A DNA stretch of 64,000 nt, from the NCBI RefSeq assembly GCF_016903815.1, contig NZ_CP069973.1; one strand, given 5' to 3'. Below the pieces are notes generated by a model. The model was not told the DNA's origin, did no database searches, and saw only the letters and a program-made list of their open reading frames with translations. Numbering within the stretch: position 1 is the first letter of the stretch; each line of letters begins with the position of its first letter. Position numbers and translations under genes: made by a program. Of the stretch, positions 1-60,826 are shown piece after piece. Source of the stretch: Escherichia coli (GTDB lineage Bacteria > Pseudomonadota > Gammaproteobacteria > Enterobacterales > Enterobacteriaceae).

Positions 1-1769
1 CACCACCGTACGTGCGGTTCCGCATACGGCGGTTCATGTTAACTCTGGAACTGCCTCTACTGTTCCAGCAGTGATATCAGACCCTGCCTCCTGAACCATG
101 CATTCTTTATCGCCTGATTCATATGGCTTGACCCTGAGTTCCACCATGGCCCGTGGTTGTTGTACGCAGAGATCATTGCCCTGTCCTTACTCAGTCCTGC
201 TCTTTGCAGATTCTTTGCCCGGGTTCGCGGTCTCTTCCACTGCCGCTACAACAAGCAACGCAGTTTCCGTTTGATCCAGCCATCCAGCTCCTCCAGCACT
301 CCTCTGACTTCCGTCAGCCTGAAGTAGCTTATCCATCCACACAGCACTGGTGTCAGAGCATTGATTGTCGCTTTCACTGATTTGCTCCGGTTTCCCGTCG
401 TCAGACTGTGGACTTTCTCCTTCAGCCTGTTCACGCTCGTCAGGGCTATCTTCAGCTTCGCCTGTTTGTGCCATGTCACACTGTACCCGAGGAACTTCCG
501 ATCCCACGGGCGCGCCACCGCGCTCTTCTTCTCATTCACCTTCAGTTTGTTCTCCACGAACGCCCTGATGTTCTTCAGCAGATGGTCGCCCGCTTTCCGG
601 CTGCTTACGTAGATGTTGCAGTCGTCTGCGTAGCGGCAGAAGCTGTGTCCACGACGCTCTAGTTCTTTATCCAGTTCATCCAGCAGGATGTTCGACAGTA
701 ACGGCGACAGTGGGCCGCCCTGCAGCATGCCCGCCTGCCGTTTCTCCCTTTGCCCGTCTTTAACCATTTCCACTTTCAGGTAGCGGCGTATCAGTCACAG
801 CACCCGCCTGTCCTTTATCGTTCTGGCCAGACGCGTCATCAGGAGTCTGTGATCCACCCGGTCGAAGAACTTCTCCAGATCCATATCCACCACCCACCGT
901 TTGCCACCCCGTATGTAACGCTGTGCCTGTTGCACCGCCTGCTGGATAAGCCTGTCCACCACCGTCGGGATGCCTGAGGTTCTCACGCCGCCATCCGGCT
1001 TCGGGATATCCATCCGGCGTATTGCCCGCGGCTGGTAGTTTCCGTCAATCAATGCCTGCCTGACGCTGCGCCAGTTCTTCTTCAGCCACGGTTTCAACTC
1101 CGCCACGCTGAGGTTATCCACCCCCGCCGTGCCTTTGTTTTCCAGCACGCGCTGATAAGCCAGCATCAGGTTTTCTCTCGTTATCACCGCTTCCATCGTC
1201 AGCGGCACTTCCGCTTTCGTTTGCCCACCCGCCGCCGTGCTGATTTCAGCGCCATCATGCAGCCCTGACGGATACTGTCCGTCTCCTCTGCCGCTGGTCG
1301 CAGTTGCCTGCGCTTGTGCTTCATTAATCATCATCGGGTTCGGATGTCCTAATCACAGTTAATCATGTTCGGCCCTTCATGCTGCCGGTTTTGCAGCACT
1401 ACTACGGCGTCGGCTGACTTCTGCCGCCCCATCCCGGCGCCTCACGGCGCCGGTAGCACACTGGCAGGGCGACAGATCTCCCGGGGTAATTCACGTGACT
1501 TTCCTGCTTATGCCTGTCGGCTTTACGTCACAGCGTTCCGTGTGAGTATCGGGCTTTGGTGATTTGTGCCACCTTACCCTGCTGCGCCGCCTTAACCGCT
1601 TCCTGTTCGTCAGGCCAGCATTTTGCATCCAGCTTCCTTCAGATTTCACCTCGCGATGAACACCCTTGCCTTCCGCTAACACTTCCCCTCACCGGGTGTG
1701 TGGAGGACTTTCACCTCTTAGTCGTTCTTCTGCCACCACAGTTGAAGAACAGCGCCAGTCACGGCGCAC
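1..1769 (-). mobile_element. Group II intron, bacterial class C-like, partial (3' end beyond window start)
   Basis: Minus strand begins GTGCG (plus 1765-1769) 10 nt after a terminator hairpin; RT ORF in domain IV position; domain V-like hairpin at 1-35. Confidence 0.6.
57..1334 (-). pseudogene. Group II intron-encoded reverse transcriptase/maturase, one frame, interrupted by two in-frame stop codons (near 795-797 and 246-248)
   Basis: RT motifs incl. YADD (CRYADD), PQGGPLSPLL, and maturase tail GPWWNSGSSHMNQA read in one frame across two stops; track ORFs 795..1334 and 246..773 share the frame. Confidence 0.6.
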
Positions 1770-1778
1770 ATAACAAAA

Positions 1779-1819: not shown

Positions 1820-2725
1820 TTAAAACAGGGGAACCAAGGTAAATAATCCAATGGTCGCCAACAGATTAATCATCGTGGTCATAATGGTGATGACCATCGC
1901 CGGCGGGTCAATATGTGTATCGCCGTGGATCAGGAAGATACGCGACATCAGTTCACCCAATATCGCGCAAATTATGCCAACGATAGCAGCCCAAATCAGG
2001 CTACCTGATGGCACCGCTACCAACGCGGCAGGCAGCGAAATATGATGTGACACCGGTACCTGAGTATTGAAATGCAGGAAAATCAGTGAGAACGCGGAAA
2101 TACCAAACGCCAGCAGCGCGCCGTTGCCGCCAAACTTCAGGCCTAAAAAGCCTGCCATCAAGCCAATACCCAAGCCCAGCACGGAAAGCTGCGGAATGCG
2201 GCTATGGTAAGGTATCCAGCACTTATCCTGCGGCGGATAGCAGTGACGAATTCCCTGCTCCGGTTTTCCAAACAGGCCAGTTTTACCGAAAACCAGACGC
2301 GAGACCACGCCAGAAATCACCACGGTTAGTGCCACGGTATCGGTCCAAGCATTGCCGGACGGGAAGGCCGGAATCTGGTTCAACCCCCAGGCGATGATGT
2401 AACCAACCGCCCCAAAAACCCCGCCTACCAGCAGCACATCGTAAGCCGCCAGACCGCTCAACCCGGCAGTGATATCACGCCCGGAACCCAGCTTGCCTTT
2501 CTTCGCTGCATACGCCGTCGCCGCAACCCCAGCGGCAAAGCCGCCGGTGTGCGGGCCAAACAGTCCAAACGGAAAAGTAATAAAGTCCGATGATGCTCCG
2601 GTAATAATTTGCACTACCGTCATGGCGATAACCAGAAGCCCAACGAATTCAAACGCCGCCAGCGCGCCAACAGCCGCACCAAATATGCCGCCGCCGAAGG
2701 CAACTACAATATCTAAGCTATTCAT
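1820..2725 (-). CDS. Glycine-rich multi-pass membrane protein, function unknown
   Basis: 301-aa ORF, hydrophobic Gly/Ala-rich segments throughout; last gene of the minus-strand cluster. Confidence 0.5.
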   Translation of the reverse strand: MNSLDIVVAFGGGIFGAAVGALAAFEFVGLLVIAMTVVQIITGASSDFITFPFGLFGPHTGGFAAGVAATAYAAKKGKLGSGRDITAGLSGLAAYDVLLVGGVFGAVGYIIAWGLNQIPAFPSGNAWTDTVALTVVISGVVSRLVFGKTGLFGKPEQGIRHCYPPQDKCWIPYHSRIPQLSVLGLGIGLMAGFLGLKFGGNGALLAFGISAFSLIFLHFNTQVPVSHHISLPAALVAVPSGSLIWAAIVGIICAILGELMSRIFLIHGDTHIDPPAMVITIMTTMINLLATIGLFTLVPLF

Positions 2726-2861: not shown

Positions 2862-3779
2862 TTAACCGCCGATATGGCAGTTAAAACCTAAGGATTCAAC
2901 CATTGCTTTTAACTCTGCCATTTGGGCTTCTTCGATACTTTTTGTATCGCCCATCGGATACTGGCGACCAAGCAGATTATATTTATTTTCACCGAAGCTG
3001 TGATAAGGCAATAAGTGAATGGTATCGACGTTCTGCATCAGGCGGGCGAACTCCGCAATATTATGGATTTCCTGCGAATTGTCATTCACTCCTGGGATCA
3101 CAGGAATACGCACAACCACTTTGGTTAAAAAGGAGATGCGCAGCAGATTCTCCAGAATCACTCTGTTATTCACGCCGGTGTTGCGCTCATGGATTTCCGG
3201 ATCGATGGCTTTAATATCGGTCAGAGCAAGATCGACATAGGGAAATACCTCATCAATCACCGCTTTGGTGGTGAAGCCGCTTGTTTCAATAGCGGTGTGC
3301 CAGCCTTTGGCTTTACAGGCTTTAAGCAACTCGCGGGCAAATTCCGGCTGCGCCAGCGGTTCACCACCGGACAGGGTAATCCCGCCGCCTGAACGCCGGT
3401 ATAAATTCTCTTCTTTTTCCAGTTCGCGCATCACTGCCGTTACCGACATACGCTTGCCCTTCATTTCCAGCGCACGGGTAGGGCAAATCTCAGTACATTT
3501 CCCACACTGAATACAGCGGTCGCGATTGATAAACCAGGCATTAGTAATGGAAAGAGCCTGTTGTGGGCAAGCATCAATACATTTTCCACAGCGGATGCAA
3601 TCATTCTTTTTAAATAATAACTCTGGGCTGTGACGTTGTGATTCAGGATTACTACACCATTTGCAGGACAGCGGGCAGCCTTTAAAAAAAGGAATGGTTC
3701 GAATGCCTGGACCATCATGCAAAGAATAGCGTTGAATATTAAATATGACGCCTTCGGTTTCGTATTCAACTTTATTCAT
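2862..3779 (-). CDS. Glycyl-radical enzyme activating enzyme (radical SAM, PflA/CutD-like)
   Basis: CPLSCKWC radical-SAM cysteine motif plus two ferredoxin-like Cys clusters; directly downstream of the GRE gene. Confidence 0.8.
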   Translation of the reverse strand: MNKVEYETEGVIFNIQRYSLHDGPGIRTIPFFKGCPLSCKWCSNPESQRHSPELLFKKNDCIRCGKCIDACPQQALSITNAWFINRDRCIQCGKCTEICPTRALEMKGKRMSVTAVMRELEKEENLYRRSGGGITLSGGEPLAQPEFARELLKACKAKGWHTAIETSGFTTKAVIDEVFPYVDLALTDIKAIDPEIHERNTGVNNRVILENLLRISFLTKVVVRIPVIPGVNDNSQEIHNIAEFARLMQNVDTIHLLPYHSFGENKYNLLGRQYPMGDTKSIEEAQMAELKAMVESLGFNCHIGG

Positions 3780-3887: not shown

Positions 3888-6440
3888 TTACGACAGTTGT
3901 TGCTCAGTACGGCTGATTATGTCGTCCTGAACTTCTTTCGCTAAAACTACCCACTGGGCGCTATAGCCCGCAACGCGTACCACCAGATCCTGATGTTGCT
4001 CAGGATTTTTCTGGGCTTCGATCAAAGTGTTGCGGTCGATAACGTTAAATTGAACGTGCATCCCTTTCTTATCGAAGTAGTGACGTATCAGGCCGCTGAA
4101 GTTGCGCAGACCGTTCTCGCCAGCCAAAGAAGACGGCAGGAATTTCTGATTATAGAGCGTACCGTTGGAGGCGATAAAGTGATCCAGTTTGGCAACTGAG
4201 TTGGCTGCGGCGGTTGGGCCAAGGGTGTCTTTACCCTGACGTGGAGATACGCCATCCGCCAACGGCTCTTTCGCCAGACGGCCATCCGGCAGTGCGGCAA
4301 CGTCTTTACCAAACAGCACGTTCGCAGACACCGGATAGATACCAGCCTGGAACTGGCCACCGCGCGGGTTGGTATATTTCTCAACTTCCTGGCAGTAGAT
4401 CAGCGCACATTTACGCGCTACTAAATCCACGTCATCGATGTCGTTACCGAAGCACGGTGTGTTTTCCAGAATACGACGGATCTCCTCGTGACGGGACATA
4501 GTGCCGGATTGCACCGGTGCTGCACTGCCGGAAGTCAGCTGGCGATAAACTTCGTTTTTAATCGCTGCCGGATCCAGAGCGCCATGCTGTTCAATGATGC
4601 GTTTCACCACATCGTAGATATCCTGCTCGTTGAGCGAGGATTTCGCCGCTGGAGTGTGCGGGTTCGCACCCACCGGATAACCGAAGTTGGCGTCCAGTGC
4701 GCTTTTCAGTTCGCTCAAAGACAGTTTACGATCTTCGAATACCTGTTTCTGGATGGCATAGACGGAGTCGCCGGTATCGGCTACGCCGAATGCTTGCGGC
4801 CCAGTAAAGTTGTAAATCGCCCCGCCTTCCTGGAGAGATTTACCACGGCCGATACAGTCGTCGACCAGTGCTGATAGGAACGGCAGCGGGCAGCGTTCGC
4901 CGTGGGCAATATCCACGCTGTTACAGGCTTCAACCAGTTGATGAACGAAGTGCGCCATCTGTTTCTGGAACGCGGTGTAGAAGTCCTCCATGCTGGTGAA
5001 CTGAGTCAGTTCGCCAGTCACTGGGCCTAGCTGTTTATTGCCAACGCGACCGTTGTTCAGGGTGATTTCCAGCACTTTTGCAACGTTAAAGAACGCGGCG
5101 TCATGCCAGCCCTCGGTGCGATGCGGTGCCTGCGGCTCTACGCAGCCGATGATACAGTAATCACGCGCATCACGCAGCGAAATGCCACGGTTCTGCAGCG
5201 CCGGGATGATTACTTCATCGTTGTACATTGCCGGAACGCCCAGGCCCATACGCACCAGCTCGCAAGCGCGATACAGAAACTCATCCGGAGTACCCTGCCA
5301 TACGCGGATTGAGAAGGATGGCTGCGGCAGACGCACATGGGCAGTCGCTTCCATACACATGTAGCTCAGATCGTTAGTTGCGTCGCGACCGTCTTCTGTC
5401 TGGCCGCCACAGCACAGGTTCTGGAACACTGCGTAACCGGCAAACGCCTGGGCAGAGACTTCGTCACGCGTTTTGTTAATGTCGTTAAGCTTGATCCAGC
5501 AGCAATCCACCAGTTCCTGCGCGAATTCACGCGAGATAGATTTGTCCGACTCCAGATACGGGTACATATACTGGTCGAAACGCCCCGGGGAGATAGAATG
5601 ACCGCTGGATTCAATCTGTAACATGCTCTGAATAAACCAGAATGTCTGGCATGCTTCCCAGAATGTGGTAGCACCGTATTCCGGCACGCGAGTACAGTTT
5701 TGAGCAATCTGCTCCAGTTCGCGTTTACGGGTCGGATTGCTCTCCTGCTGCGCCAGACGGGATGCTTCTTCAGCGTAACGATGGGCGAAACGGATCGCTG
5801 CGTTATAACTGATCAGCACCGCATTATAGAACTGTTCTTTCTTTATATATCCTGGTTCAGTGCGATCTAATGATTCCAAGGCACGGCTAACTTCATTAAT
5901 GATACCACGGAAACCAATTTTCAGCACTTTACCGTAGTCAACACTGACATGACCGACGCCCCCGAAGAAGTAGTTACCAACAGTGAATACACCGCTCGCC
6001 ATACTCTCTTTAGTGCCTTCTGACATGTAAGATGCCGCCAGAGCACTGGTAGTTTTACCCGGCCAGTATTTAAATGCTTCATGAAGCTCCTGAGCAGTCT
6101 TTTTCGGGATAACAAACGGGTCGGCAATACGGTGTTCCATAGTCTCAAACTCTTTTTCCACCCAGTCGTAGGAGAACTCAGGGCAGATTTCAGTTGAGCG
6201 AGGATTAATAGTTACCGCTCCAACGATTAATTCGTCTGGGCGAATTGTTACCGGTAATTGGTTAAAGATTTTTTCCACCACTTTAGCACGACGCATAATC
6301 GCGGGCAGTTGTTCTGTTTCTTTATATGCTTCGGTTGCTAACACCGCGCGTTCTGATTCCACATACGGCTTCGCCGTCAGGATCATATTTCTCAGTCTTA
6401 CAACACGGTCTGTCGGATTAGAAAAGCCTTTCTCTAACAT
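3888..6440 (-). CDS. Glycyl radical enzyme of the pyruvate formate-lyase family (choline TMA-lyase CutC-like or related eliminase/dehydratase)
   Basis: 850 aa; C-terminal glycyl radical motif RVAGYSAQ; Cys loop GCVEP; paired with an activase. Confidence 0.8.
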   Translation of the reverse strand: MLEKGFSNPTDRVVRLRNMILTAKPYVESERAVLATEAYKETEQLPAIMRRAKVVEKIFNQLPVTIRPDELIVGAVTINPRSTEICPEFSYDWVEKEFETMEHRIADPFVIPKKTAQELHEAFKYWPGKTTSALAASYMSEGTKESMASGVFTVGNYFFGGVGHVSVDYGKVLKIGFRGIINEVSRALESLDRTEPGYIKKEQFYNAVLISYNAAIRFAHRYAEEASRLAQQESNPTRKRELEQIAQNCTRVPEYGATTFWEACQTFWFIQSMLQIESSGHSISPGRFDQYMYPYLESDKSISREFAQELVDCCWIKLNDINKTRDEVSAQAFAGYAVFQNLCCGGQTEDGRDATNDLSYMCMEATAHVRLPQPSFSIRVWQGTPDEFLYRACELVRMGLGVPAMYNDEVIIPALQNRGISLRDARDYCIIGCVEPQAPHRTEGWHDAAFFNVAKVLEITLNNGRVGNKQLGPVTGELTQFTSMEDFYTAFQKQMAHFVHQLVEACNSVDIAHGERCPLPFLSALVDDCIGRGKSLQEGGAIYNFTGPQAFGVADTGDSVYAIQKQVFEDRKLSLSELKSALDANFGYPVGANPHTPAAKSSLNEQDIYDVVKRIIEQHGALDPAAIKNEVYRQLTSGSAAPVQSGTMSRHEEIRRILENTPCFGNDIDDVDLVARKCALIYCQEVEKYTNPRGGQFQAGIYPVSANVLFGKDVAALPDGRLAKEPLADGVSPRQGKDTLGPTAAANSVAKLDHFIASNGTLYNQKFLPSSLAGENGLRNFSGLIRHYFDKKGMHVQFNVIDRNTLIEAQKNPEQHQDLVVRVAGYSAQWVVLAKEVQDDIISRTEQQLS

Positions 6441-28604: not shown

Positions 28605-31347
<2,743 letters not shown>

Positions 31348-46122: not shown

Positions 46123-46198
46123 TGGTGCCCGGACTCGGAATCGAACCAAGGACACGGGGATTTTCAATCCCCTGCTCTACCGACTGAGCTATCCGGGC
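46123..46198 (-). tRNA. pheU: tRNA-Phe (anticodon GAA)
   Basis: Reverse complement reads GCCCGGATAGCTCAGTCGGTAGAGCAGGGGATTGAAAATCCCC...GGGCACCA, 76 nt. Confidence 0.9.
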
Positions 46199-59997: not shown

Positions 59998-60710
59998 CAC
60001 AGAAAACCCCCAGCTAGGCTGGGGGTTCCGGAAAGCTTTCAGCTTTGAGCCAGTTATTAAAACCCCTTTTGATTTGTTAAAACACCTTGCGGTCTGGCAA
60101 CTGCAAGTGTCAAACAAGAAATCAAAAGGGGGTCCCAATGGGGAACGAAAAGAGCTTAGCGCACACCCGATGGAACTGTAAATATCACATAGTTTTTGCG
60201 CCAAAATACCGAAGACAGGTGTTCTACAGAGAGAAGCGTAGAGCAATAGGCAGTATTTTGAGAAAGCTGTGTGAGTGGAAAAGCGTACGGATTCTGGAAG
60301 CTGAATGCTGTGCAGATCATATCCATATGCTTGTGGAGATCCCGCCCAAAATGAGCGTATCCGGGTTTATGGGATATCTGAAAGGGAAAAGCAGTCTGAT
60401 GCTTTACGAGCAGTTTGGTGATTTGAAATTCAAATACAGGAACAGGGAGTTCTGGTGCAGAGGGTACTACGTCGATACAGTGGGTAAGAACACGGCGAAG
60501 ATACAGGATTACATAAAGCACCAGCTTGAAGAGGATAAAATGGGAGAGCAGTTATCGATTCCCTATCCGGGCAGCCCGTTTACGGGCCGTAAGTAACGAA
60601 GTTGGATGCAAATGTCAGATCGTGTGCGCCTGTTAGGGCGCGGCTGGTAAGAGAGCCTTATAGGCGCATTTGAAAAACCTCCGGCTATGCCGGAGGATAT
60701 TTATTTTTTT
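59998..60710 (+). mobile_element. IS200-like element (IS200/IS605 family), ends approximate
   Basis: 5' hairpin CCCCCAGC-TAGG-GCTGGGGG; Y1 transposase gene; 3' hairpin CCTCCGGC-TAT-GCCGGAGG plus T-run. Confidence 0.65.
60138..60596 (+). CDS. tnpA: IS200 TnpA (HUH/Y1 transposase)
   Basis: 152 aa MGNEKSLAHTRWNCKYHIVFAPKYRRQVFY ... HIHMLVEIPP (HUH motif). Confidence 0.9.
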   Translation: MGNEKSLAHTRWNCKYHIVFAPKYRRQVFYREKRRAIGSILRKLCEWKSVRILEAECCADHIHMLVEIPPKMSVSGFMGYLKGKSSLMLYEQFGDLKFKYRNREFWCRGYYVDTVGKNTAKIQDYIKHQLEEDKMGEQLSIPYPGSPFTGRK

Positions 60711-60778: not shown

Positions 60779-60826
60779 TTTGCAGGACGACCTGCAAACG
60801 CCTCTTTTCACCGGGGACGGCCCCAA
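60779..60826 (+). ncRNA. Guanidine-II riboswitch (mini-ykkC) in the gdx leader
   Basis: Two hairpins with ACGR loops: TTGCAGG-ACGA-CCTGCAA and GGGG-ACGG-CCCC, 14-nt linker, second hairpin about 8 nt from the GGAG Shine-Dalgarno. Confidence 0.7.

Follow-up and report, generated by a model that had tools for sequence, protein, structure and literature searches.

Class C group II introns recognise a terminator stem-loop plus 3-4 nt of IBS1, have no EBS2/IBS2 pairing and insert in sense orientation, 3-11 nt past an intrinsic terminator or a comparable stem-loop. By definition, their domain V (DV) carries a basal CGC in place of AGC and is 2 bp shorter, and an 11-nt bulge with a conserved AGGAA is found in the epsilon' region (PMC1702495). 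The closest element already catalogued is E.c.I6, named after the nomenclature of the bacterial group II intron database and listed as E.c.I6-1a and E.c.I6-1b by Leclercq and Cordaux (2012, PLoS One 7:e52268, Tables S3 and S4; PMC3522654), where E.c.I6-1a of strain CFT073 spans NC_004431 4320108-4321914, with a class C ORF and the remark "disrupted ORF".

We analysed a window of 64,000 nt of Escherichia coli DNA (GCF_016903815.1, contig NZ_CP069973.1). We are highly confident that the element at window positions 1-1769 is the bacterial class C (IIC) intron E.c.I6, in a copy that no longer moves and is decaying. It measures 1,807 nt in total and lies on the minus strand, from position 1769 to 38 nt outside the window, these last 38 nt (domain VI, DVI, and the 3' splice site ...CUCGAU) falling beyond position 1; for this part, a 100% identical genome locus (L001) was used. 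A first-pass annotation had proposed a class C intron in sense orientation just behind an intrinsic terminator, a reading supported by the Rfam matches, DV, the encoded protein (IEP), the insertion sites and PMC3522654. The element sits between grpO and grpP, within the propanediol-utilisation cluster of the grp genomic island, and its 5' flank contains the following features:

1820..2725, minus strand: grpO (propanediol utilisation permease), the upstream "exon" gene (ORF list; RefSeq annotation of L001)
1822-1820, minus strand: grpO stop codon TAA
1775..1802, minus strand: intrinsic terminator of grpO, the target motif of the intron (sequence and RNAfold)
1770..1774, minus strand: last 5 nt of the 5' exon, GUUAU

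The terminator consists of the stem GCCAGCAG (1802-1795), a loop (1794-1788), the complementary stem CTGCTGGC (1787-1780) and a T5 run (1779-1775), all on the minus strand, with a folding energy of -26.6 kcal/mol (RNAfold). The GTGCG that opens the intron is at 1769-1765 on the same strand, and the GC stem of the terminator ends 10 nt before the G at 1769, exactly as first described. At this site, the 5' exon ends in ...GCUUUUUGUUAU and the 3' exon starts with CAAUUUUAAAAC (...UUGUUAU / CAAUUUU...). The 5' exon ends in UAU at six of the eight E. coli sites of the family, which is compatible with a 3-nt IBS1, and UAU is the likely IBS1 here. In addition, every copy, namely the one at the grp site, those at five other E. 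coli sites and those of six relatives in other taxa, showed a stable hairpin or terminator about 4-10 nt upstream. A simple terminator scan missed the grpO terminator on the strand of the intron: with the A5/T5 extension, the T-run counts as part of the stem. The same flanking A5/T5 give this terminator a bidirectional look. Sub-threshold Thr_leader matches from Rfam at 1711-1852 were discarded, as they reflect only similarity to the terminator hairpin.

The ribozyme is split by the IEP gene in domain IV into these parts:

1335..1769, minus strand: 5' part of the intron (domains I-III and the 5' side of IV), starting GUGCG (RF02001, RF01998)
1..34, minus strand: DV with the CGC catalytic triad (truncated RF00029 match of 29.7 bits, only the DV half lying within the window)
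1-38 nt beyond the window edge, minus strand: DVI, bulged branch A and 3' splice site

On the reverse strand, the D1-D4 and DV-DVI models matched in the correct order and orientation. RF02001 was matched over the full length of the model at 1660-1491 (141 bits, E 3e-30), and so was RF01998 at 1456-1372 (74 bits, E 2e-12), scores that set aside a chance match to group II introns. The DV-like hairpin noticed at 1-35 was borne out, as positions 34-1 correspond to the DV half of RF00029, cut by the window edge; in L001, the entire DV-DVI was recovered at 4797-4868 (model positions 1-77 of 77, 50.4 bits, gathering score 40). The DVI of L001 folds with a bulged branch A 7 nt from the 3' end, and the intron finishes in ...CUCGAU at L001 4868, giving a GUGYG 5' terminus and an AY 3' terminus. 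These boundaries rest on the comparison of independent insertion sites: the 5' boundary is common to copies at six of them, and the 3' boundary ...CTACTCGAT to five, the flanks diverging thereafter. DV reads aaCCGCCGUAUGCGGAACCGCACGUACGGUGG, with CGC where the RF00029 consensus has AGC, and its upper stem and loop show a 4-nt gap, i.e., they are about 2 bp shorter than the consensus. The AGGAA bulge, AUCUGAAGGAA (window about 1644-1634), is left unpaired by the RF02001 alignment, with a helix on either side, and was invariant in 11/11 aligned family members.

The features of the IEP (RT/maturase) gene are as follows:

39..1334, minus strand: IEP gene remnant in domain IV, a pseudogene (translation; alignment to intact 462-aa ltrA genes)
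1334-1332, minus strand: start codon ATG
942..943, minus strand: junction of an 87-nt in-frame deletion (alignment to intact copies)
795..797, minus strand: nonsense codon 1, AGA (Arg209) to TGA (translation and alignment)
549..550, minus strand: junction of a 6-nt in-frame deletion, one AAACTG repeat unit, 2 aa (alignment)
246..248, minus strand: nonsense codon 2, TGG (Trp394) to TAG, in the maturase (X) region (translation and alignment)
57..59, minus strand: nonsense codon 3, CAG (Gln457) to TAG, six codons before the natural stop (alignment)
41-39, minus strand: natural stop codon TAA

The first-pass annotation had reported one frame from 1334 to about 57 with two internal stops. The frame from the ATG at 1334 stands, and the TGA at 797-795 and the TAG at 248-246 are real, with sense codons in intact relatives (AGA or ATA, Arg or Ile, at the first). 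Position 57 is not the natural end, as the TAG at 59-57 is itself a nonsense codon ahead of the TAA, and the list of lesions was incomplete, missing this third stop, both deletions and a P to L change (P233L) in the PQGG motif. The larger deletion removed 29 aa from the ancestral 462-aa protein, QAIAQQLSAIVDKSFSDSSYGFRPGRNAW, corresponding to RT motif 2/2a and including GFRPGR (GFRPGRNA); it is bracketed by GCAGGCG microhomologies, and the lost block is conserved in the GsI-IIC RT alignment. By contrast, R363C was rejected as a lesion of a conserved RGW motif, as the GsI-IIC RT has Met at this position. The IEP of an intact relative contains RVT_1 (110-316) and GIIM (332-410) as its only Pfam domains, with the HNH/endonuclease domain absent, and matched the GsI-IIC RT (6AR1), the E. 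rectale IIC RT (7UIM) and LtrA with 466, 357 and 145 bits, respectively. Against TIGR04416, the two IEP fragments of the window copy reached 134 and 166 bits, compared to 405 bits for the intact relative (cut-off 300). This inventory supports the earlier proposal that the protein is inactive, and we predict an RT/maturase devoid of activity. RefSeq/PGAP annotates two ORF fragments (179 aa and about 160-175 aa) as separate CDSs, named "hypothetical protein" or "maturase" and "reverse transcriptase domain-containing protein", whereas they belong to one pseudogene.

The possibility that the stops are sequencing or assembly errors in an intact intron had been raised in general terms by the first reading, and nothing beyond this speaks for it. 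The same 1.8 kb was found at 100% identity in dozens of independently sequenced and assembled complete genomes, and at ≥99% identity in roughly 500 (about 480-530 records). Base-by-base comparison of four grp-locus copies (CFT073, APEC E18055, an O100:H21 pig isolate and strain 7/2) detected both stops, as well as both deletions, in 4/4. Read errors are ruled out by the recurrence of the stops across hundreds of independent assemblies, and the disrupted ORF was reported independently in PMC3522654. These population data already refute the artefact, and we regard its probability as practically nil. The third nonsense codon is younger than the other lesions, as APEC E18055 retains CAG in its grp copy.

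A further lesion affects the ribozyme itself. Directly after the 5' splice site region, following GUGCGCC (nt 7/8, about 1762), the window copy lacks 19 nt that are conserved in nine long-form sequences, with relatives from Providencia, Pseudomonas, Citrobacter and an IncP plasmid keeping the segment; the active B.h.I1 starts in the same way as these relatives, GTGTGCCAGGCATGCGC (primer sequences, PMC1702495). The missing segment provides the 5' strands of the basal domain I helices 6-10/314-318 and 15-19/302-306, which are 99% paired in the nine long-form relatives compared to 29-55% for slid controls, the evidence for these helices consisting of one covarying pair (8-316, with five A-U and four G-C) plus invariant pairs. 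In the window copy, the 5' strands of both helices are gapped, and the basal stem of domain I is not intact; this defect bears on function, not on ancestry. Single-sequence MFE folding closed the basal stem in only one of five long-form relatives, since the GC-rich 5' end folds locally. An apparent compensatory pair between nt 139 (C to U) and nt 274 (G to A) was dropped: nt 274 lies in the CGCGC strand, whose partner is deleted, and its change is better accounted for by drift.

The earlier idea of an intact ribozyme is therefore probably wrong for the window copy. Apart from the 19-nt deletion, however, the ribozyme looks as good as in copies with an intact ORF, with RF02001, RF01998 and RF00029 scores of 141.1, 73.8 and 50.4 bits versus 132.6-139.3, 62.5-71.4 and 47.5-50.4 bits. 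Such equal or higher scores, which include DV, the branch A of DVI, the AGGAA bulge and the D1-D4 cores, would be expected if the intron had lost its ORF but could still splice, alone or with a maturase provided in trans, as a potential non-autonomous retroelement. In the same direction, the grp lineage has just 4 specific substitutions in the 512 nt of non-ORF ribozyme (against 33 in the 1,295 nt of the ORF, p = 0.016), and intact ltrA copies of about 95% identity exist on E. coli plasmids and chromosomes, so that help in trans from the maturase of a second E.c.I6-family copy in the cell is conceivable, the family occupying 1,571 places in all and up to five in some genomes; the other intron of the window belongs to a different family and was rejected as an implausible helper. 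Moreover, such a deletion may not abolish activity, because another E.c.I6-family copy (L002) combines an intact 462-aa ORF with a similar 17-nt 5' deletion. Nevertheless, the deletion takes away the 5' strand of the basal domain I helices and draws the GUGCG of the splice site into a hairpin formed locally, and the 3' partner strand has begun to drift (CGCGC to CACGU). The presence of the short form at several sites is not evidence of mobility either, because the same deletion arises in place, as seen at the occupied bcs-plasmid site (L022 versus L004). No copy with the same lesion set was seen at a second site, and polymorphisms since insertion are spread evenly, with 5 over the 512 nt of ribozyme and 16 over the 1,295 nt of dead ORF, so that the ribozyme shows no deficit. 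Altogether, we consider a splicing-competent intron unlikely.

The ORF changes of the grp lineage comprise 18 synonymous, 12 nonsynonymous and 3 nonsense substitutions, a synonymous excess (p = 1e-4) pointing to an earlier active phase followed by decay. Consequently, the low density of substitutions in the ribozyme was rejected as a sign of present-day constraint: the excess stems from that earlier phase, and the later polymorphism is even. Two further readings seem decidedly improbable to us. In one, the 5' deletion would be no random decay but a recurrent, repeat-mediated "off switch" belonging to the intron family itself, which silences the ribozyme once the intron has inserted. The GCGCCG repeats at nt 3-8 and 22-27 could provide the route by slippage, with independent origins at the grp site, at the bcs-plasmid site (again L022 versus L004) and probably elsewhere, and L002 as a 17-nt variant. 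In the other, the ribozyme core kept between grpO and grpPQ, otherwise pristine, might regulate the grp locus in cis.

About 540 genomes match the grp flanks at ≥99%, and the element separates the flanks wherever both occur. An unoccupied grpO-grpP junction was found in 0/5,426 complete E. coli genomes (600-nt joined junction query), and the exact 26-mer of the junction was absent from 100,044 species-representative genomes. This presence in every grp-positive complete genome, the well-preserved ribozyme core and the annotation of the fragments as CDSs are what a domesticated element might be expected to show, either as a structured spacer or insulator that separates the structural genes of grp from the regulators grpPQ, or as the source of a truncated RT-like protein. 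However, retention is expected without selection, as introns stay in place at the DNA level and divergence among the copies does not exceed 1.1%. In addition, the intron does not change more slowly than its flanks (between-strain divergence of 0.61%, compared to 0-0.38% for the flanking grp genes), RT motif 2 is missing from the fragments, which also have P233L in PQGG and score far below the family cut-off, and the third nonsense codon is still segregating, as is typical of ongoing decay. Domestication therefore appears very improbable, and we return to the fossil intron as the preferred reading.

From the known class C mechanism, the history of this fossil intron could be as follows. An active ancestor would have been transcribed and spliced with its own RT/maturase, and its RNA would have entered the DNA by reverse splicing, immediately past the stem-loop of the grpO terminator. 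The intergenic, post-terminator site would have cost the host nothing, grp expression never having needed splicing, and the element would have been carried along with the grp genomic island. Sequence comparison shows that the IEP gene has since gained the 87-nt and 6-nt deletions, the three nonsense codons and damaging missense changes, and that slippage between the GCGCCG direct repeats has cost the ribozyme 19 nt at its conserved 5' end. The result would be the absence of RT/maturase and a domain I whose base is very probably unable to fold, with neither efficient splicing nor movement, leaving presumably neutral DNA between grpO and grpP.

In conclusion, the element is an ordinary fossil retroelement, already known and catalogued. 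It follows textbook class C biology, in which a "safe" spot behind a terminator is targeted and the unmaintained copy decays, and this decay agrees with earlier descriptions of how introns go extinct in enterobacteria. Its importance is small beyond annotation, where the RefSeq fragments should be taken as pieces of one pseudogene and not as independent proteins; it is also a convenient lineage marker for the grp island, because it proved to be fixed there, all the grp-positive complete genomes of E. coli that were examined carrying it.

Compared to the active class C introns B.h.I1 of Bacillus halodurans (Toor et al. 2006, PMC1702495), GsI-IIC (PDB 6AR1) and the E. rectale IIC RNP (PDB 7UIM), the element shares the insertion a few nt past a terminator stem-loop, a putative short IBS1, the CGC triad, the shortened DV, the AGGAA bulge and an En-less RT/maturase of about 420-460 aa, the IEP of the intact E. 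coli relative aligning end to end with the GsI-IIC RT (the 466-bit match above). It differs from them in its pseudogenised IEP and in lacking the conserved 5' GUG(Y)GCCRGGCAUG... beyond nt 7/8. The intact E.c.I6-family copies, annotated as ltrA (e.g., downstream of hdaA in plasmid JE86-ST02_p1 and in the bcs region of pHH194M-140K), are 94-96% identical in nucleotides over the whole element, with the same termini and the same hairpin-proximal insertion, but they occupy other sites, keep an ORF of 448-462 aa and, in most cases, the long 5' end. Di.ze.I1 and So.gl.I1 from Enterobacterales, compared by their description (PMC3522654), are likewise class C introns behind Rho-independent terminators, with low copy numbers and decaying fragments, although they belong to other species and sequence families than E.c.I6. 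With respect to the published E.c.I6-1a, there are no essential differences. PMC3522654 does not itemise lesions for E.c.I6; what is new here is the lesion map (the 87-nt and 6-nt deletions, the three nonsense codons and the 19-nt 5' ribozyme deletion) and the presence of the element throughout the grp-positive complete genomes, about 540 in number. Between the window copy and that of CFT073, 8 called positions differ, and the record of CFT073 has an N at one more; the boundaries that we derived in CFT073, the length of 1,807 nt and the class C assignment are all identical to those published, and the location in a genomic island, the single copy per genome and the disrupted ORF are shared as well.

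The element lies on the minus strand between grpO and grpP, co-oriented with both genes of an E. coli glycyl-radical propanediol-utilisation (grp) island, and its GTGCG start at 1769 falls 10 nt past the GC stem of the hairpin that follows grpO.

3888-6440, minus: grpM, grp island
2862-3779, minus: grpN, grp island
1820-2725, minus: grpO, grp island
1802-1795 / 1787-1780, minus: stem of the hairpin after the grpO stop, with a T-run at 1779-1775 (-26.6 kcal/mol)
1660-1491, minus: Rfam RF02001 match, 141 bits, E 3e-30
1456-1372, minus: Rfam RF01998 match, 74 bits
34-1, minus: Rfam RF00029 match, domain V half only, cut by the window edge

The three Rfam group II intron models follow each other in the correct order. 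At the 100% identical locus of strain 7/2 (L001), the complete match to the model of domains V and VI (DV and DVI; 50.4 bits) ended in ...CUCGAU, 38 nt past window position 1, with the bulged branch A of DVI 7 nt from the intron 3' end; the whole intron measures 1,807 nt. Alignment of the grp copy with a copy following hdaA on a plasmid, one on a chromosome, one in the bcs region of a plasmid, and those at the L011, L012, L020, and L023 sites showed similarity starting exactly at GTGCG and ending exactly at CTACTCGAT, with unrelated flanks outside. In the intron-grpP spacer beyond the window (L001 4950-4964), 82 nt downstream of the intron, a terminator-like hairpin, CGCCAGTAACTGGCG and then TTTGTATT, is similar to the 5' hairpin of the intron itself, GCGCCGTGACTGGCGC; probably this likeness is a coincidence or the hairpin is a second terminator.

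The first-pass annotation, which took the element for an intron of class C inserted past a terminator, was confirmed. Class C introns present a DV 2 bp shorter with CGC instead of AGC, an 11-nt bulge containing AGGAA in the epsilon' region, and a short IBS1 without EBS2, and they insert 3-11 nt past a terminator-like stem-loop (Toor et al. 2006, PMC1702495). The DV of the grp copy, CCGCCGUAUGCGGAACCGCACGUACGGUGG, has the CGC triad and, aligned to the RF00029 consensus, shows a gap of 4 nt. The AGGAA bulge, AUCUGAAGGAA, stays unpaired in the alignment to RF02001, and its sequence does not vary among 11 family members. A stable hairpin or classic terminator was found just upstream of the intron at six out of six independent E. 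coli sites, as well as in all six relatives (Providencia, Pseudomonas, Citrobacter, an IncP plasmid). The intact intron-encoded protein (IEP) of the family, of 462 aa, contains only RVT_1 and GIIM domains and has its best matches among solved IIC enzymes, scoring 466 bits against the GsI-IIC RT, 357 against the E. rectale IIC RT, and 145 against LtrA.

Scoring of the IEP frame against the consensus of intact copies revealed the following lesions, in minus-strand window coordinates:

between 943 and 942, minus: 87-nt in-frame deletion, flanked by GCAGGCG microhomologies
797-795, minus: nonsense, AGA to TGA
724, minus: P233L in the PQGG motif
after 549, minus: 6-nt repeat contraction
248-246, minus: nonsense, TGG to TAG
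59-57, minus: nonsense, CAG to TAG
41-39, minus: natural stop, TAA

The two in-frame stops first noticed (TGA 797-795 and TAG 248-246) and the dead RT were thus borne out, recurring in independent genomes, but that list had missed both deletions, P233L, and the third nonsense mutation. The latter had been taken for the end of the frame, at about 57; the natural stop is the TAA at 41-39. The 87-nt deletion takes out QAIAQQLSAIVDKSFSDSSYGFRPGRNAW, corresponding to RT motif 2, conserved in the GsI-IIC RT. All the IEP lesions are common to CFT073, an O100:H21 pig isolate, and strain 7/2, whereas the grp copy of APEC E18055 (L006) keeps CAG at the third site, making CAG to TAG the youngest mutation. 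Sequences at least 99% identical are present in roughly 500 complete genomes, so the stops are not read errors. Changes in the ORF of the grp lineage comprise 18 synonymous, 12 nonsynonymous, and 3 nonsense ones, a synonymous share of 55% against 23% expected (p = 1e-4), which shows a phase of purifying selection while the intron was active, with decay afterwards.

The RefSeq/PGAP annotation includes no intron feature at the element and presents pieces of the dead IEP as two separate intact CDSs instead of one pseudogene (window 249-1334 (-); L001 3497-4036 and 4103-4585), labelled "hypothetical protein" or "maturase" and "reverse transcriptase domain-containing protein". In L006, intron nt 1593-1758 (window 177-12), within the 3' 170 nt, form a run of "ancestral" alleles that includes the CAG of the third site and the DV variant of L002 and L003, two other E. 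coli copies; this run is either a retained ancestral polymorphism or a gene conversion from another family copy. In the "intact" ltrA of the chromosomal copy L003 (2938-4326), a GAC to GGC change turns the catalytic YADD into YADG, and the product may be RT-dead although the frame is open.

The proposal that the ribozyme may be intact is probably wrong. Over the modelled regions, the Rfam scores of the grp copy equal or exceed those of intact-ORF copies, and its DV and DVI are unblemished, though a conserved, paired 5' segment is missing. The intron starts GUGCGCCRGGCAYGGCGCGU... at four of the six E. coli sites and in all six relatives from other taxa, and B.h.I1, which is active in experiments, opens with GUGUGCCAGGCAUGCGC according to the primers given in PMC1702495. 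In the grp copy, GUGCGCC is joined directly to GUGACUGG, with 19 nt gone between GCGCCG direct repeats. An 11-sequence alignment shows two partner strands towards the 3' end of domain I: CCCYGG, which pairs with nt 6-10, and the CGCGC immediately upstream of it, which pairs with nt 15-19; 99.3% of the cells of this basal helix are paired, versus 29-55% with the partners slid. Pair 8-316 (G-C in four sequences, A-U in five) is the sole covarying one, and MFE folding of domain I closed the basal stem in one of five long-form relatives. The grp copy lacks the 5' strands of both helices, and the orphaned 3' strand is changing, from CGCGC to CACGU. The ribozyme is probably impaired.

The same 19-nt loss was found in L022, at a site that holds the long form in L004, L009, and L010 (L022 121-170 versus L004 2480-2530), so this is a recurrent deletion made in place after insertion; therefore, the short form at several sites is no proof of mobility. 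The loss also concerns L020, L023, and L002, with GTACG instead of GTGCG in L020, and a similar 17-nt deletion in L002, whose ORF is nevertheless intact, a caveat to the reading of the short form as disabled.

No unoccupied grpO-grpP junction was detected in 5,426 complete E. coli genomes, and the exact-junction 26-mer was absent from species-representative genomes. In the approximately 540 genomes with grp flanks at >=99%, the two halves are separated by the element, which is fixed in the island. When strain 7/2 is compared with Res13-Lact-ER07-18, the intron shows 0.61% difference and grpO, grpP, and grpQ show 0-0.38%; taken with post-insertion polymorphisms spread evenly over ribozyme and ORF, these figures suggest a hitch-hiking fossil that drifts neutrally. 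Going by what is established for class C introns (PMC1702495; PMC3522654), the original insertion would have occurred through reverse splicing, with the terminator stem-loop and IBS1 as its target, presumably without host cost given an intergenic position past a terminator, and the element would now be incapable of splicing or moving.

Other elements were noticed in the window. A further group II intron, 2,270 nt long and unrelated to the first (28605-30874, +), interrupts an IS3-family transposase orfB after ...LWVADFTY; it has an intact 507-aa RT/maturase ORF (29261-30784, 341 bits to TIGR04416) and matches the DV-DVI model in full (30788-30874). It agrees in length and target type with E.c.I4 copies (PMC3522654) and, unlike E.c.I6, looks potentially active. 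An STnc490 sRNA (60005-60128, +, 146 bits) and a guanidine-II riboswitch (60779-60825, +, 50 bits) were also detected; STnc490 appears too directly downstream of the L004 intron copy (L004 4367-4490), adjoining an IS200/IS605 tnpA.

The element is already known: Leclercq & Cordaux 2012 (PMC3522654) list the CFT073 copy in their supplementary tables, at exactly the coordinates obtained here (NC_004431 4320108-4321914), as "E.c.I6-1a ... ORF class C ... in PAI SelC-Island". There, the CFT073 copy was placed in the "SelC island" and the S88/APEC_O1 island at a different locus; since a tRNA-Phe (GAA) gene sits at window 46123-46198 (-), some 44 kb away from the intron, the grp island of this strain may lie near a phe tRNA. 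The drift of a fossil fits the earlier suggestion in PMC3522654 of an island gained with its intron inactivated beforehand.
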